From the UHGV virus genome UHGV-0135847: a DNA stretch of 35,435 bases; one strand, given 5' to 3'. A model generated the notes under the pieces. It worked only from the letters and a program-made list of their open reading frames with translations. It ran no database searches and had not been told where the DNA came from. Shown one piece after another: positions 5,904 through 29,996 of this stretch. The stretch comes from a virus. The position numbers and the translations under genes are program-made. Numbering within the stretch: the first letter of the stretch is position 1; every line of letters begins with the position of its first letter.

Positions 5904-6293
5904 ATGATTGACGCTCATGACTTCACAAGATGGGTGCGCACACAGGACACCCGTCTGGCTCCCGTTCTTCAGGGGTTATTTGATCTCTACATCCGTGGTC
6001 GTGACAACAGAGCACGCACCACAAAACCGGAGAATGCAGACACCCTTTATTTCACAGTAGACGACTGCTACCGCGTGGATTTCACACCACACGGACTGGC
6101 GTTGCACTGCCTGACACCGCACGGCGAATCACTGCTGGCGTATTACGACTCCCCGGCCTCCGTATTTGCAGCAATGCTGGCGCATCGCACTGCTGGCGGG
6201 TGTGCCTCGCTGAGTGAATACACCGCTGAATTTAACCGCCTTTCCGTCCTCTTCTCGCAGGAGTGGCAGCGCGTGACGGGATACCAGCCATGA
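5904..6293 (+). CDS. Hypothetical protein, translationally coupled to replication gene A
   Basis: 129-aa ORF; stop TGA overlaps ATG of gene A at 6290 (ATGA). Confidence 0.5.
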   Translation: MIDAHDFTRWVRTQDTRLAPVLQGLFDLYIRGRDNRARTTKPENADTLYFTVDDCYRVDFTPHGLALHCLTPHGESLLAYYDSPASVFAAMLAHRTAGGCASLSEYTAEFNRLSVLFSQEWQRVTGYQP

Positions 6294-9130
6294 GTGCGTT
6301 TGCATGGAGCTGGAATGAACCACGACCAGCTATTGATCCGGCCAGATTTACGGAGCGCAGGCAGGAAACTGAAACCGACCTGCAACGCGCCATCCGTTAC
6401 TACCTTGAGGCGGACAAAAGGGCACAGGAAGAACAGGAAGCGAAGGAAGAAGCCTTTTTCGCACAATCCGCCATGGGTAAAAAACTCATGGCATCCCTTG
6501 AGGAAGCCGGACAGCGTGAAAAGCTGGCACAGAGCATCATCAGTAAGCGCCGGGCAACAGAACAAGACCCGGTAGCCCGTGCCTTTGCCACACTGAAGGC
6601 GCTTCCCGTTTATCTGCGAGAACCTCTGAGCCGCCACCTCTCTTTCCTGCGCAAGAAGCAGGAAGCCGATCGTCAGAAAGGCAAAAAGAGCTGGCAGGCG
6701 GAACGCTATACACGCGGAACCCTGCGCAAAATATTCGAACGTCTGGATCGCACTGACGGGCGCTGGCTGACACCTGGTTATCGCTCCCTTGCCGGACGCG
6801 AACGCCTGGACGATTTGCTTTACCTGCCGCAGCTCAACAAACACCAGATACAGACGCTGGCCACCATGACGGCGGCGATGTTCAGCAGCACCTTCGAAAA
6901 ACTCTGCGATGGCTTTGGCGCGACCGATGGCGAACTGACCATGGATGTAACGCTGAAGGCGTATCAGATGCTGGCCCGCATGGCGTTACACCTGCACATC
7001 ATGCCTCCACATTATGACGCACTGACAACAGATAAAGACCGGAGGAACGAACCGGACACGGAGCTGCTGCCGGGCGCAATCCTTCGCCTGACCTGTACGG
7101 AATGGTGGAAACGCAAACTGTGGCTGTTACGTTGCGAGTGGAGAGAAGAACAACTCCGCGCCGCCTGTCTGGTTTCCAGAAAAACATCGCCCTATCTGAG
7201 CCAGGACGCATTAAGCGAGTTTCGCGCACAGCGCGAGAAAACACGCGATTTCCTGAAAAGTTTCATGCTGGAAAACGAAGATGGGTTCACGATTGATCTC
7301 GAGACAGTGTATTACGCGGGAGTAAGTAACCCGGTTCACCGTAAGGCAGAAATGATGGCCACCATGAAGGGGCTGGAACTTCTGGCCGAAGCCCGTGGCG
7401 ACAAAGCGGTGTTTCTGACTGTCACCTGCCCGTCAAAATACCACGCCACAACAGAGAACGGTCATCCGAATCCCAAATGGAACGGGGCCACCATGCGCGA
7501 CTCCAGCGATTACCTGGTTAACACGTTTTTTGCGGCGGTCCGCAAGAAACTGAACCGCGACGGCCTGCGCTGGTATGGCATCCGCACGGTGGAGCCTCAC
7601 CATGACGGCACCGTGCACTGGCATATGATGGTCTTTGCTCATCCGGAAGAAATCGACACTATTGTGTCCCACACCCGCGATATTGCCATTCAGGAAGATC
7701 GTCACGAGCTGGGTGATGATATTACCCCACGCTTTAAGGCGGAGTACGTCGACGGCTCAAAAGGCACACCGACCAGCTACATCGCCACCTACATCGGGAA
7801 AAACCTGGACAGCCGTGCCGTGGATGGCATCGACCCGAAAACGGGCAAGCCACGCGTTGACCACGAAACCGGAAAATCAATGGCCGAGAGCGTGGAACGC
7901 GCCATCGGCTGGGCGCGCCTTCACCGGGTCCGCCAGTTCCAGTTCTTTGGCATCCCCTCCCGCCAGGTATGGCGTGAACTGCGCCGCCTTGCCAGCCAGA
8001 TGGCACGCAACCCGGAAGGCCCGCAACGGCTGAAGGATGACGCAATGGATGCGGTTCTTGCCGCCGCTGATGCCGGATGTTTTGCCACCTACATAGAGAA
8101 ACAGGGCGGCGTACTTGTTCCACGCAAAGACTACCTGATTCGCACCGCCTACGACCTCGCCGATGAGCTGAACGATTACGGCGAACAGAGCGTACAGATT
8201 TACGGGATCTGGTCACCACTCATCGGGGAATCCTCCCGTGTGTGCACGCATCCGGATAACTGGAAGCTGGTAAGACGCAAACCGGAAGCGGAAGACAGTG
8301 CCCGCGAAAATGGTTTTGACCTTCAGGGCGGCCCTGCCGCCCCTTGGACTCGTGGCAATAACTGTCCCCGTGTACAGGAAACGGACAACAACGGGACAGA
8401 ACAGCCGGAAGAACGGCCAGCAACGTGGCCGCAGCTCCCTGACGGCGTTGAAGTGAACGAATGGATGCGCTCACTGAAACGGCACGAACGCCGGGCGCTG
8501 ATGCGTTCGCTTCGTGACAAACAGGCAAAAAACAGCAGTGATGAAATGCAGAGCTGGACACAGAGCCGCAAACAGCAGCGGCCTTTGCCTGATAACCACG
8601 AATTACTCGCTAAAGAATGGCGGGAGTCTGCTGAATCTCTCGGCCTGCATATCGGTGAACAACAGATGCAGCACCTGTTACGGGGCGGCAGTCTGTACGT
8701 TGACGGCAGCATCATTGCACCGCAGGGATTTGAAATTGTACGCAAACCGGATACCCGCCCGGACAGCCGAATCACGCAGCTCTGGCAGCGCCTGAGCCGT
8801 AATCATGGCGTAAGCAGCACGGAGATCCGCCATAACCCGGTCGCCAGCTATCTGGCACAGCTGGGGGCATCAGACCCTGAAGCCGCCGCACGCCTGGCAT
8901 CCACACTTCAGCAGGACCAGAACACCATGAAAACACCCGTTACCGTGCTTTCTGACATGCTGCGCGCCATCCGCGACGCAGAGCACGCACAGAGAATCAG
9001 TGAGACCACTGAACGCGCCAGCCGCAAAGCAGACCTGCTGCGGGGTGGCCTGACCAGCGGAAACAAAAAACAGACAGAAACGGGACTCACGAATCCCGTA
9101 AATGACCAAAAAACGCGCAGCGATATATGA
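6290..9130 (+). CDS. A: Replication initiation protein A (P2 gpA-type HUH rolling-circle initiator endonuclease)
   Basis: Motifs GIRTVEPHHDGTVHWHMMVF (HUH) and YIATYIGKNLD (catalytic Tyr region) typical of P2/186 A proteins; start taken at ATG 6290 rather than upstream GTG 6263. Confidence 0.9.
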   Translation: MSAFAWSWNEPRPAIDPARFTERRQETETDLQRAIRYYLEADKRAQEEQEAKEEAFFAQSAMGKKLMASLEEAGQREKLAQSIISKRRATEQDPVARAFATLKALPVYLREPLSRHLSFLRKKQEADRQKGKKSWQAERYTRGTLRKIFERLDRTDGRWLTPGYRSLAGRERLDDLLYLPQLNKHQIQTLATMTAAMFSSTFEKLCDGFGATDGELTMDVTLKAYQMLARMALHLHIMPPHYDALTTDKDRRNEPDTELLPGAILRLTCTEWWKRKLWLLRCEWREEQLRAACLVSRKTSPYLSQDALSEFRAQREKTRDFLKSFMLENEDGFTIDLETVYYAGVSNPVHRKAEMMATMKGLELLAEARGDKAVFLTVTCPSKYHATTENGHPNPKWNGATMRDSSDYLVNTFFAAVRKKLNRDGLRWYGIRTVEPHHDGTVHWHMMVFAHPEEIDTIVSHTRDIAIQEDRHELGDDITPRFKAEYVDGSKGTPTSYIATYIGKNLDSRAVDGIDPKTGKPRVDHETGKSMAESVERAIGWARLHRVRQFQFFGIPSRQVWRELRRLASQMARNPEGPQRLKDDAMDAVLAAADAGCFATYIEKQGGVLVPRKDYLIRTAYDLADELNDYGEQSVQIYGIWSPLIGESSRVCTHPDNWKLVRRKPEAEDSARENGFDLQGGPAAPWTRGNNCPRVQETDNNGTEQPEERPATWPQLPDGVEVNEWMRSLKRHERRALMRSLRDKQAKNSSDEMQSWTQSRKQQRPLPDNHELLAKEWRESAESLGLHIGEQQMQHLLRGGSLYVDGSIIAPQGFEIVRKPDTRPDSRITQLWQRLSRNHGVSSTEIRHNPVASYLAQLGASDPEAAARLASTLQQDQNTMKTPVTVLSDMLRAIRDAEHAQRISETTERASRKADLLRGGLTSGNKKQTETGLTNPVNDQKTRSDI

Positions 9131-9178
9131 AGCGCGCACAAAACAGGCAAAAACGGGATTTCAGAATCCCGTAAACGA
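9078..9178. repeat. Two copies of a 28-bp element, each containing an 8-bp-arm palindrome (ACGGGAYT-N4-AATCCCGT), 73 bp apart, spanning the 3' end of A and the A-parM intergenic region
   Basis: aaacgggactcacgaatcccgtaaatga (9078-9105) vs aaacgggatttcagaatcccgtaaacga (9151-9178), 23/28 identical by eye. Confidence 0.4.
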
Positions 9179-9206
9179 TTAATTAATCAACATAAGGAAA
9201 AGCGAC

Positions 9207-10166
9207 ATGAAAATTTGTATCGACGACGGCTCCACCAACATCAAGCTGGCATGGACTGAGAACGGCGAACGCCGCAACGCCATCAGCCCGAACAGCTTCA
9301 AGTCGGAATGGTCTGCGCCGTTCGGTGGCACGCAGCCCGCGAACTACATGCTTGATGGCGTGCGCTATGGTTTTGATCCGGTCAGCGATCGCTTTGTCCA
9401 GACGACCGACACGCAATACCAGTACAGCGATGTGAATGTCATTGCCATTCATCACGCGCTGGTCAAATCAGGCATCACGCCACAGGAGGTGGATGTGGTT
9501 GTCACCCTGCCACTGAGCGAGTATTTCGACACAAACGCACAGCCGGACATGGCCAACATAAACCGCAAAAAAGCAAACGTTATGCGCCCGGTGGAATACC
9601 AGAACGGCGAAGCATTCACTATCCGTAATGTACGGGTTATGCCTGAATCCATTCCGGCTGGCTTTAAAGCACTGGCTGACATGAGTCCGTTTGAATCCCT
9701 GCTGATTGTGGATTTAGGTGGAACCACGCTGGATGTGGCAAAGGTTCAGGGACAACTGGCAGGTATCAGCCAGGTGTTTTGCGATCCACACGTAGGCGTT
9801 TCCCTGATGGCCGATGCAGTACTGTCGGTGATGGCCACTAACGGTATGCGTACCAGTCACCACATCGCCAATACCATTATCGAACATCGCCATGATGAAG
9901 CCTGGCTGCGCCAGCACATCTACAATGACGCGCATTACGCCAGCCTGATGGCGGTTATTCGTGAAAAGGAAGAAACACTGAAACAACGCGTGATCCGCGC
10001 GCTGGCGGGTTTTTCGGGTTACGGGCGGGTGATGGTTGTCGGTGGCGGGGCGGAGATTGTGGCACCCGCTATCCGCGAAGCCTGCGGAGTTAATGCGATT
10101 TTCATCGCGGACGGGGTGCCACAGTTTGCTCTGGTTAATGGGCTGTACGCAATGGACAAGGAGTAA
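9207..10166 (+). CDS. parM: ParM/StbA-like actin-type segregation ATPase
   Basis: N-terminus MKICIDDGSTNIKLAW and motifs VMPESIPAG, LIVDLGGTTLD, VVGGGAE closely follow plasmid R1 ParM (StbA) as recalled. Confidence 0.8.
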   Translation: MKICIDDGSTNIKLAWTENGERRNAISPNSFKSEWSAPFGGTQPANYMLDGVRYGFDPVSDRFVQTTDTQYQYSDVNVIAIHHALVKSGITPQEVDVVVTLPLSEYFDTNAQPDMANINRKKANVMRPVEYQNGEAFTIRNVRVMPESIPAGFKALADMSPFESLLIVDLGGTTLDVAKVQGQLAGISQVFCDPHVGVSLMADAVLSVMATNGMRTSHHIANTIIEHRHDEAWLRQHIYNDAHYASLMAVIREKEETLKQRVIRALAGFSGYGRVMVVGGGAEIVAPAIREACGVNAIFIADGVPQFALVNGLYAMDKE

Positions 10167-10170
10167 ACCA

Positions 10171-10482
10171 ATGACGACACCAACCAGACGAATAAGTTTC
10201 TATCTGAAGCCCGCCGCCGTCAAGAACGAAGGCGAAGCATGCGCCTGGCTGGACAGCCTTACACCAGAAGCCCGTAAAAACGGCCAACGCGTGGCTTTTC
10301 TGGCCGGGCTGGCGCTTCTGAAAATGAATCCGGCAGAGGCTTACCGACTGGCAGCATGGGCTGACGATGAGGCGTTATCAGTGACACAAACCAGGACAGA
10401 ACGCCTCCTGTCACAGCCAGTACCAACCGCACAGATAACCAGTCAGATGGCCGGAAATATCAGGGCGTTATTTCCTGAATAA
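10171..10482 (+). CDS. parR: ParR/StbB-like centromere-binding adaptor
   Basis: 103 aa starting 5 nt after parM; pattern RRISFYLKP...WLDSL...AFLAGLALL...ALFPE matches R1 ParR layout as recalled; ORF track lists it inside a longer out-of-context frame (10036..10482). Confidence 0.7.
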   Translation: MTTPTRRISFYLKPAAVKNEGEACAWLDSLTPEARKNGQRVAFLAGLALLKMNPAEAYRLAAWADDEALSVTQTRTERLLSQPVPTAQITSQMAGNIRALFPE

Positions 10483-10545
10483 CACAACGTCAGGGCGAGT
10501 TCGCCCTGATCTCCATCTCAGAACATAAACAAGAAGAGCGACTTA

Positions 10546-10929
10546 ATGAGCAAAATCAACTATCAGGCATTACGTGAACGTTATTCACCTGCACCAGTAC
10601 CAAAATGCCCTATTTGCGGCGAAGAAATGTCAATTCAGCGAATATCTGGAGCACAGGTTGTTTATGGCTGCTCCGGTTATGGTGATGATGGAGATTTCAA
10701 AATTGGTCGAACTCTTGCCGACGAACATTATGAAAAATCACGCGTAACAGTGTTGGATGTCGGGGATCCTGAAGTATTGGCGCTACTTGATTGGCTGGAA
10801 ACCAAAGACAACCGAATCGCTGAACTGGAAAAAATCGCCACTGACTATGCACTTAAATTCCAGAAAGCACAGGACGCATTAAAGTACGCCGCTTTGCTGC
10901 ATAGCAGGACAGCGCAGCTACAAGACTAA
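10546..10929 (+). CDS. Hypothetical protein with N-terminal Cys-rich (CPICG...YGC) zinc-ribbon-like segment and C-terminal coiled-coil-like tail
   Basis: 127-aa ORF; Cys pattern read from translation; function unknown. Confidence 0.5.
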   Translation: MSKINYQALRERYSPAPVPKCPICGEEMSIQRISGAQVVYGCSGYGDDGDFKIGRTLADEHYEKSRVTVLDVGDPEVLALLDWLETKDNRIAELEKIATDYALKFQKAQDALKYAALLHSRTAQLQD

Positions 10930-11019
10930 CTTAAAGCGGAAGATTAATACATGGTGAGTCGGGGTAATTTGTTTTTATCCCGACAAATAAACAAAAAAGT
11001 GGACTATCTCTGTAGTATC

Positions 11020-11550
11020 TTATTCAGCATCGTCTCGTGCAGTCTGTGCATACGTCACAACAACGCCCAATGCATTAGTTTTCTTTTCAACATAGATAAT
11101 ATTGTCATATTCATAGTTACCATACGGATAGCAAATAAGAATATTTTTATGCAGATCGGGATCATCAACAAACGCTCCGGAACAGCTTCTTGAACTACCG
11201 GATGTATACTCATACGGTGCAACATATGATGATGTTAGTCCTGGTAAAAAATAAGTCACCATCATAAGAGGGATAATCAGGAATATCCCTGTAAGAATGC
11301 AAGAGCCAGCATAAACCTTCAGGTATTCCGACAGTCCTTTCCAGCCACTTTGCTTCACTACCCCCCTCTTCACCAGAAACAAGGAGAAGAAAAAGGACAT
11401 ACCCATACTACACAAGATGTAATAATTGGATATACGCGAATTAAGATATGTAATCCTGTAGATATCTGCCCTCCACCAGTAAAAGAGGAAAATAATCCCT
11501 AGCACTGAAACAGTCATGCAAATCAAATAAGGATATGAATCTTTCTTCAT
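11020..11550 (-). CDS. AT-rich cargo gene encoding a polytopic inner-membrane protein of unknown function
   Basis: 176 aa; three hydrophobic segments (approx. residues 10-30, 42-60, 82-105) then a soluble Tyr/Gly-rich C-terminal domain; DNA visibly AT-rich versus flanking phage genes; opposite strand to neighbours. Confidence 0.6.
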   Translation of the reverse strand: MKKDSYPYLICMTVSVLGIIFLFYWWRADIYRITYLNSRISNYYILCSMGMSFFFSLFLVKRGVVKQSGWKGLSEYLKVYAGSCILTGIFLIIPLMMVTYFLPGLTSSYVAPYEYTSGSSRSCSGAFVDDPDLHKNILICYPYGNYEYDNIIYVEKKTNALGVVVTYAQTARDDAE

Positions 11551-29480: not shown

Positions 29481-29996
29481 TGTCTGCATTCCCGCTGCGA
29501 AGTGCCGCCCGCTCACGCCAGCTAACCACTTCGCCGGGCGTCATCATGAAGATTTCGGCGGGCGACCAGTTAAAAATGGCGGCAATATCCGCCACAAAGT
29601 CTTCTATGTGCTCAAAGCACACAACCGTGATCAGGCTTCCGTCGCCTGTTCGTTCTTCCCGCCAGAGTCCGCACCGCTCAAAAAATTTACGGCAACCACA
29701 CATAACTGAATAAAATCACGGGATGCCATTTTTTTGATCGTCACTTCATCCAGTCGCGGTGATGTCACGCGTGACAGCAGCGTAAACATGGATTCCGCTT
29801 TCAGATTCAGCACATCAGACAGCGACAAATCTCGCAGAGATCCAGCCTGCTCAATAGCCCCGGTGATCTCCACATACGTGATTTTTTCGCCGCCTCGCTC
29901 AATTGGTTGGGTAAGTTTTACGCCACGCTCGCTGGTTTCTTTCACAGTGTCAGCAACGACCGTGTTTTCGGTATCGATGTTTTTCGTCTCTTTCAT
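29467..29996 (-). CDS. Tail assembly chaperone E+E' fusion made by programmed -1 ribosomal frameshift
   Basis: Slippery T_TTT_TTG in E zero frame at plus-strand 29679-29685; -1 frame continues as FFERCGLWREE... (ORF 29467..29703). Confidence 0.65.
29631..29996 (-). CDS. E: Tail assembly chaperone E
   Basis: 121-aa ORF upstream of T; contains slippery heptamer near 3' end. Confidence 0.75.
   Translation of the reverse strand: MKETKNIDTENTVVADTVKETSERGVKLTQPIERGGEKITYVEITGAIEQAGSLRDLSLSDVLNLKAESMFTLLSRVTSPRLDEVTIKKMASRDFIQLCVVAVNFLSGADSGGKNEQATEA
29679..29685 (-). other. -1 frameshift slippery heptamer TTTTTTG
   Basis: Read on minus strand; codons AAT TTT TTG (N F L) in E frame. Confidence 0.6.

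Follow-up and report, generated by a model that had tools for sequence, protein, structure and literature searches.

We analysed a 35,435-nucleotide stretch of viral DNA (UHGV virus genome UHGV-0135847; hereafter the window, to which all coordinates refer) and, within it, a pair of near-identical dyads located between the replication gene A and the plasmid-type segregation genes parM and parR. We propose that the paired dyads are probably ParR-binding sites, which would form the centromere (parC-type), and probably also the operator, of a phage ParMRC (type II, actin-like) cassette. By gene content and homology, this cassette is cargo of a P88-like P2-family prophage, in which it sits between gene A and the packaging genes. 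The centromere reading is based on the position of the sites directly upstream of parM-parR, where type II centromeres lie; on a ParM and a ParR of the R1/pB171 type, with no other array flanking their operon and with dyads that are unique in the window; on the conservation of the cores and of their spacing in diverged lineages, together with their absence from prophages with other cargo; and on the ParR motif RRISFYL, which was invariant wherever GGGAT dyads were kept.

The two elements are 28-mers at positions 9078–9105 (AAACGGGACTCACGAATCCCGTAAATGA) and 9151–9178 (AAACGGGATTTCAGAATCCCGTAAACGA) that are identical at 23 of 28 positions and start 73 bp apart, each containing an inverted repeat with 8-nt arms around a 4-nt centre. 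This confirms the description given in an earlier interpretation made from the letters alone (the sequence-only reading), which had also correctly placed the first element in the last codons of A and the second in the A–parM spacer near the parM ribosome-binding site (RBS). The direct repeat extends to the left over an A/C-rich flank, resulting in two 42-nt units with 81% identity. Unit 1 (9064–9105) comprises this flank and dyad site 1 and overlaps gene A in its last 22 codons, and unit 2 (9137–9178) lies in the A–parM intergenic region. Dyad site 1 (ACGGGACT-CACG-AATCCCGT, 9080–9099, with the core GGGA..TCCC at 9082–9097) matches at seven of eight arm positions in the window, as C9086 faces A9093, and becomes perfect in most relatives, which have T at 9086. 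Dyad site 2 (ACGGGATT-TCAG-AATCCCGT, 9153–9172, core 9155–9170) is perfect (8/8) and lies within the 76-bp A–parM spacer, 22 nt 5′ of the AAGGA of the RBS (9194–9198), ending 35 nt before the parM ATG (9207). Both are proposed as sites for a ParR dimer of dimers, and site 2 is a possible operator. The inter-site spacer (9106–9136, plus strand) contains the stop codon of A (9128–9130) and varies between lineages.

A search of the window for ACGGGAYT-N4-AATCCCGT, allowing up to three mismatches, returned only these two sites in 35.4 kb, as compared with an expected 0.37, and none of 100 shuffles reached the observed count. The shorter pattern GGGA-N8-TCCC was likewise found only at 9082 and 9155 (expectation 0.63), and no second repeat array was found flanking the parMR operon. 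The AAA tracts in 9056–9200 showed a periodicity of 10.4–10.5 bp, which by a crude test was reached in 0.5–0.6% of shuffles. Separately, the hexamer CGCGCA occurs twice around the A stop (9114–9119 and 9133–9138), 19 bp apart; a Hafnia relative has CGTGCA at both positions with equal spacing, most E. coli relatives break the pattern (CGCGCC), and the pair probably arose by chance.

The proteins encoded downstream are those expected to act on a type II centromere, since a cognate ParM and a ribbon-helix-helix ParR are both present and intact. The parM gene (9207–10166, plus strand) encodes an actin-like segregation ATPase of 319 aa that matched the Pfam families StbA_N (1.8e-82) and ParM C-terminal domain (8e-68), as well as R1 ParM in the PDB (1MWK, E 2.9e-92). 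After a gap of 4 nt, parR (10171–10482, plus strand) encodes a 103-aa protein assigned by Pfam to Plasmid_stab_B (PF10784, 2.1e-24), the predicted ribbon-helix-helix centromere-binding adaptor. Its family profile matched the structure of StbB/ParR from pB171 (2JD3, E 3.9e-16), which was found only in this way, as a PDB search with ParR as a single sequence gave no match; the AlphaFold monomer, built on a 14-sequence alignment, was of low confidence (mean pLDDT 55) and uninformative. Upstream, the gene A homologue (6290–9130, plus strand), coding for the rolling-circle replication initiator, matched Phage_GPA (1.2e-131), and its product showed 30% identity over 732 aa to the A protein of P2; its start codon is uncertain, since the open reading frame 6263–9130 opens at GTG 6263. 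The gene calls of the sequence-only reading for A, parM and parR were therefore right (Phage_GPA, StbA/ParM and PF10784 ParR by Pfam/PDB).

The window comes from a P88-like (Xuanwuvirus, P2-family) prophage, as judged by homology: the region 8000–11000 is 96–98% identical to Escherichia phage P88, Xuanwuvirus P884B11, Citrobacter phage Shae_phiSM and other Peduoviridae. P88-like records annotate the three genes as replication endonuclease, plasmid segregation protein ParM and partition protein. A tyrosine integrase is encoded at the left end of the window, and an Ead/Ea22 gene, identified by Pfam, follows parR (10546–10929, plus strand).

Conservation of the sites was evaluated in P88-like loci recovered from IMG/VR via ParM or the DNA pattern. 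Both dyads were present in the loci examined, about 150 relatives, with a single-site variant that is considered below. The two cores together spanned 89 bp in 146 of 153 loci and 88–90 bp in the remainder, and single-base variants were observed at 9086 (C/T), 9153 (A/G), 9170 (C/T) and, as loop changes, at 9162 and 9164. No covariation of these variants with ParR alleles was found, in a test that has no power because the DNA-reading strand of ParR is invariant. A contig scan with ParR alone as the query returned close relatives only.

More distant lineages were reached by protein searches followed by contig look-ups, and four lineages were aligned. A Hafnia phage with a ParR 73% identical to that of the window carries GGGATTCATGAATCCC and GGGATTTGAAAATCCC, 73 bp apart across a diverged spacer, and the stop codon of its A gene falls in the centre of site 1. 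In a second Hafnia lineage (ParM 62%) the sites read GGGATTGAGGAAACCC and GGGTTCATTAAATCCC, also 73 bp apart, and in Plesiomonas (ParM 63%, ParR 39%) they read GGGACAACAAAAACCC and GGGACAACACTAACCC, 72 bp apart. In such distant lineages (ParM 62–63%), ParR was about 39% identical or alignable in its N-terminal half only. The invariant columns of the four-way alignment were the GGGA..CCC of both sites, an ATTAAT(CAA) box and a few scattered A columns, with the spacer otherwise variable, and in the diverged lineages the cores remained 72–73 bp apart and 35–43 bp from the parM ATG. In contrast, the predicted hairpins weakened in the distant lineages, where the loops are 10 nt long and the energy is about −4.6 instead of about −10 kcal/mol. 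Since core and spacing were kept while hairpin stability was lost, it is the duplex GGG-N10-CCC signature and its helical phasing that have been preserved, and not a stem-loop. The footprint thus favours a double-stranded protein site travelling with parMR over a terminator or an RNA hairpin. Scans of viral contigs with the ParM of the second Hafnia lineage and of Plesiomonas added one further locus only, of the Enterobacter type, and the upstream DNA of two ParR proteins (P0029 and P0031, 62–63% identity) was left out of the comparison because their contigs begin inside parM.

The limits of the homology indicate that the sites travel with parMR, and relatives of the module have retained them. 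E. coli prophages in which A is homologous up to about 9031–9040 and is then followed by a Dam methylase and an AAA ATPase, or by other cargo, have no dyads, which assigns the sites to the parMR cassette rather than to A. On the right-hand side, homology among P88-like phages stops soon after parR, at 10482–10533. From these boundaries the ParMRC cassette spans about 9035–10530, its left end providing the last codons of A. A hairpin with 9-bp arms (TCAGGGCGA-GT-TCGCCCTGA, 10490–10509), located 8 nt past the parR stop and lacking a T-run, may mark the end of the cassette or operon. In P2-like prophages of Escherichia, Hafnia, Plesiomonas, Serratia and Enterobacter alike, the parM-parR pair is found at one and the same location, with gene A on one side and ogr/portal on the other, and ParM is strongly conserved, with clusters at 98–99% identity containing thousands of members.

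In ParR, an N-terminal TRRISFYLKP and a C-terminal NIRALFPE are conserved. The N-terminal strand, (T)RR(I/V)SFYL, was kept in the Escherichia, both Hafnia and the Plesiomonas lineages, and RRISFYL, the presumed DNA-reading strand of the protein, was invariant even in E. coli ParR alleles that are only 50–56% identical over the remainder, upstream of which the dyads were virtually unchanged. As a separate observation, the two ends of ParR (about 14 aa at the N-terminus and NIRALFPE at the C-terminus) are invariant and its middle and helix region highly variable, and the 50–56% identical E. coli parR alleles adjoin nearly identical parM and upstream DNA, a pattern that suggests recombination or diversifying selection within parR. 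Near-identical (90–92%) P88-type ParR proteins were also found in assemblies labelled as Gram-positive (L003, a Vagococcus sp. contig, and L005, a 229-bp contig of Fredinandcohnia humi), which probably represent contaminating enterobacterial DNA.

The sequence-only reading had offered the elements as a centromere and/or a replication origin. The centromere/operator part is supported by their position, by the conservation of core and 72–73 bp spacing and by their absence where parMR is absent, whereas the origin part failed. That the dyads are an origin, or an accessory origin element recognized by the A protein, would agree with the P2 origin being within the 3′ part of A and with site 1 being in the last codons of A. 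However, the P2 record (NC_001895) annotates the A nick site at position 29892, inside A, and the DNA around it (GCGGCATCGCCGCGCCTCGGAGTCCTGTCAATAACTGT) aligned with 8329–8366 of the window (GCGGCCCTGCCGCCCCTTGGACTCGTGGCAATAACTGT) with about 80% identity over 38 nt, exactly where the A proteins of P2 and the window align. Furthermore, 56 Klebsiella and other P2-like phages matched a 3-kb query (8000–11000) only at 8324–8385, so that what these distant phages have in common is this segment and not the dyads. The probable replication origin is accordingly placed, by homology to that of P2, at 8329–8366 on the plus strand, with the putative nick at about 8343–8346, about 735 bp 5′ of the dyads and separate from the palindromes. 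No A nick-site sequence was found within 9078–9178 and the dyads show no resemblance to it; in the Hafnia phage A ends inside site 1, leaving most of the element outside A; and relatives with a homologous 3′ end of A that lack parMR have no dyads. Taken together, these results led us to reject the origin reading, which we regard as very improbable.

Two readings in which the dyads act through a transcript were also considered. The first takes them as two tandem intrinsic terminators on the minus strand, insulating gene A and the early operon from antisense transcription of the cargo or late region. On that strand each dyad does read as a stem of 8 bp, a loop of 4 nt and then a T-rich tail, the terminator scan called both, and the closer Hafnia relative, too, has retained the tail (the A-rich flank of the plus strand). 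Nevertheless, no minus-strand gene ends at the dyads, the nearest one (11020–11550) being about 1.9 kb away with the plus-strand genes parM, parR and ead in between, and the putative terminators vanish together with parMR. In the second Hafnia lineage and Plesiomonas (L196/L198) the stems are reduced to 3–4 bp with 10-nt loops, at about −4.6 kcal/mol (−9.1 in one case), and no T-tail is apparent by eye, but the GGG-N10-CCC cores persist at their spacing of 72–73 bp. This makes the terminator reading improbable. The other reading takes the dyads as plus-strand RNA structures in the A–parM transcript, either hairpins that control processing, stability or translation, or a long-range helix between sites 1 and 2. 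The folding energies of the individual sites lie between −8.7 and −10.7 kcal/mol, the 160-nt region has a z-score of −4.9 on the plus strand, and the frequent site-2 variants A9153G and C9170T would retain G-U pairs on that strand. However, a low z-score follows automatically from two near-identical palindromes and the minus strand also scored −4.1, and site-1 variants are wobble-compatible only on the opposite strand, making the strand signal inconsistent. Among the P88-like haplotypes the site variants showed no consistent strand-specific wobble pattern and no compensatory double changes, the stems are lost in distant lineages where the cores stay, and an Rfam search of 8800–9400 gave no match, which also counts against an RNA element. 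We therefore give this reading little credence. Both were down-ranked because stem stability is not conserved, the GGG/CCC cores are, and the variants lack a consistent strand bias.

Several observations weigh against the paired dyads being a centromere and operator. Type II centromeres in general consist of tandem repeats that precede the operon, either in one run, as in pSK41, where 10-bp sub-repeats occur, or split into blocks, as in R1 (PMC5016525). The phage element has no array of several tandem iterons of about 10–11 or 20 bp and so departs from the canonical form with at least four tandem 10–11-bp iterons; dividing the 42-nt units into four R1-like 11-bp iterons was tried and not adopted, as the 11-mers were only weakly similar by eye. 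Of 66 distinct haplotypes, 14 carry T in place of the outer C of site 2 (9170). One locus (L085, IMGVR_UViG_2657245439_000011) carries an exact 73-bp deletion, equivalent to 9076–9148, that leaves a single hybrid dyad next to intact A, parM and parR genes, so that two sites are not strictly required for persistence. Relatives in Serratia and Enterobacter prophages (L199, L200 and L204), with the ParR strand RKISFYL, show a different layout, in which the CGGGAAC motif is kept and the two direct dyads are replaced by a long inverted repeat with 20-nt arms (CGGGAACnAnATAGAAAAAT) around a 26–28-bp centre; this repeat is a candidate alternative centromere layout with the CGGGA motif in common. The prophage, present in 1371 of 5426 complete E. 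coli genomes, is chromosomal at 1531 of 1533 places. Finally, a promoter scan detected no sigma-70-like site at threshold between or beside the sites, which leaves the operator role putative.

This last result also bears on the analogy with R1, in which a promoter lies between the repeats. The analogy was not borne out, given the negative scan and an inter-site spacer that is not conserved, in which region only weak promoter-like hexamers were seen (ATGACC at 9102–9107 and TATATG at 9124–9129). No plus-strand terminator was found between A and parM, and together with the absence of a detectable promoter this suggests that transcripts of gene A may simply continue into parMR. The ATTAATCAA box (9182–9190, plus strand), which separates site 2 from the RBS and has ATTAAT columns invariant in the four lineages, is a candidate for the −10 element of a weak parMR promoter; alternatively, its core, WATCAA, may represent one half of a site of the IHF type.

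Some of these points would also fit dyads that bind ParR as an autoregulatory operator only, in a module whose partition function has been lost or repurposed: there are just two sites, the prophage is almost always integrated, and the single-site variant exists. Against this, the strong conservation of ParM, the conserved ParM-docking tail of ParR and the occurrence of the module in the same slot in five genera point to a working ParM–ParR–DNA machine, and the same stretch of DNA serves as operator and as centromere in the type II systems already known (PMC2241845). A purely regulatory role is thus unlikely, and we retain the centromere reading as the probable one. Beside the chromosomal copies, a complete P88-like phage with integrase, cox, A, parMR and structural genes was found deposited as a circular E. 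coli 'plasmid' of 34,461 bp (L201, NZ_CP148288.1), which may be an excised or replicating form or a prophage in the plasmid state.

Compared with known partition systems, the dyad pair appears as a new architecture within a known but unstudied phage-borne ParMRC module. The parC of R1 covers 159 bp, in which a 39-bp core with the promoter is flanked on each side by five direct iterons of 11 bp, and about one ParR dimer binds per iteron in a U-shaped complex on curved DNA (PMC2241845). The phage element resembles it in lying directly upstream of parM-parR, in the protein families involved, in the arrangement of two repeat blocks and a spacer, and in its A/C-rich composition with phased A-tracts and a similar RBS context (CATAAGGA). 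It differs in consisting of two 42-nt units with one 16–20-bp dyad each, separated by a unit gap of 31 bp (57 bp between cores) in which no promoter was detected, in a GGGAT/ATCCC motif that is unrelated to the R1 iterons, and in being found in a phage and not a plasmid. The plasmid relatives of its ParM (46–52% identity), from R1-like IncF, IncL/M pOXA-48-like and IncK plasmids, Arsenophonus and the phage-plasmid D6, had clear direct iterons and no GGGAT dyads.

In pSK41, a dimer of dimers of ParR binds to each 20-bp repeat. The phage system shares with pSK41 and pB171 a ribbon-helix-helix ParR, through the match of its family profile to pB171 ParR, and differs from pSK41 in that contiguous tandem repeats build a superhelix there, as compared with two separated dyads described here at the level of DNA sequence. 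Precedents for type II partition modules on integrated elements are srpMRC and AlpAC-alpS. Like the phage cassette, srpMRC of the SXT/R391 integrative and conjugative elements is a type II module on a normally integrated element, and it acts on the transient excised circle; SrpR is, however, not homologous to ParR, the host element is not a phage, and srpC binding and stabilization were shown by experiment, whereas the phage site is known from its sequence. In the Corynebacterium prophage CGP3, an actin-like filament and its adaptor are needed for efficient replication of the excised phage (PMC4446434). AlpAC-alpS is thus also a prophage-encoded filament with a DNA-binding adaptor acting on repeats upstream of the operon, although its proteins are unrelated or distantly related, alpS consists of 24 short TTAAnnG repeats and the host is Gram-positive. 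The parH of TP228, the site of ParG (type Ib), is similar in its short boxes, AT-rich spacers and ribbon-helix-helix reader (PMC3130281), and differs in its Walker-type ParF motor and in having a tetramer-box array as opposed to two dyads.

Based on what is known of the family, each 16–20-bp dyad would be bound by two ribbon-helix-helix ParR dimers. Their beta-ribbons would enter successive major grooves at the GGGAT/ATCCC half-sites, which have a centre-to-centre distance of about 11 bp. The separation of 73 bp corresponds to 7.0 helical turns, which would present both dyads on the same face of the DNA, flanked by helically phased A-tracts. The bound ParR tetramers, possibly with more ParR spread on the A-rich flanks, could then shape the region into a bent or U-shaped segrosome, in which the C-terminal tail of ParR (NIRALFPE) would capture the growing ends of ParM filaments. 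The filaments would push sister copies of the extrachromosomal phage circle apart, after infection or induction. ParR bound at site 2, beside the RBS and the ATTAAT box, would also repress parMR. Going one step further, we tentatively suggest, as a possibility somewhat short of an even chance, that two ParR-tetramer dyads, seven turns apart, form a minimal centromere sufficient for linking the genome of a P2-family phage, which replicates by rolling circle and normally integrates, to ParM filaments. In that case the module would act only on the excised or infecting circle, positioning or segregating replicating copies or making sure that each daughter cell receives a copy ahead of integration.

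ParMRC is known from textbooks as the machine that segregates plasmids, and here a complete and conserved copy is found in an integrating P2-like prophage, for which our full-text literature searches found no study of the role or centromere of the P88/Xuanwuvirus parMR module. If ParR did not bind, the element would be merely a conserved repeat of little wider interest. If it does, the cis site would be a fragment of roughly 115 bp with two mutable GGGAT/ATCCC dyads, offering a handle on what actin-like partition does for a phage and bearing on the minimum number of ParR sites needed for a type II segrosome. Should the two dyads indeed act as a minimal centromere, active partition would belong to the ordinary life cycle of a prophage family present in about a quarter of E. 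coli genomes.

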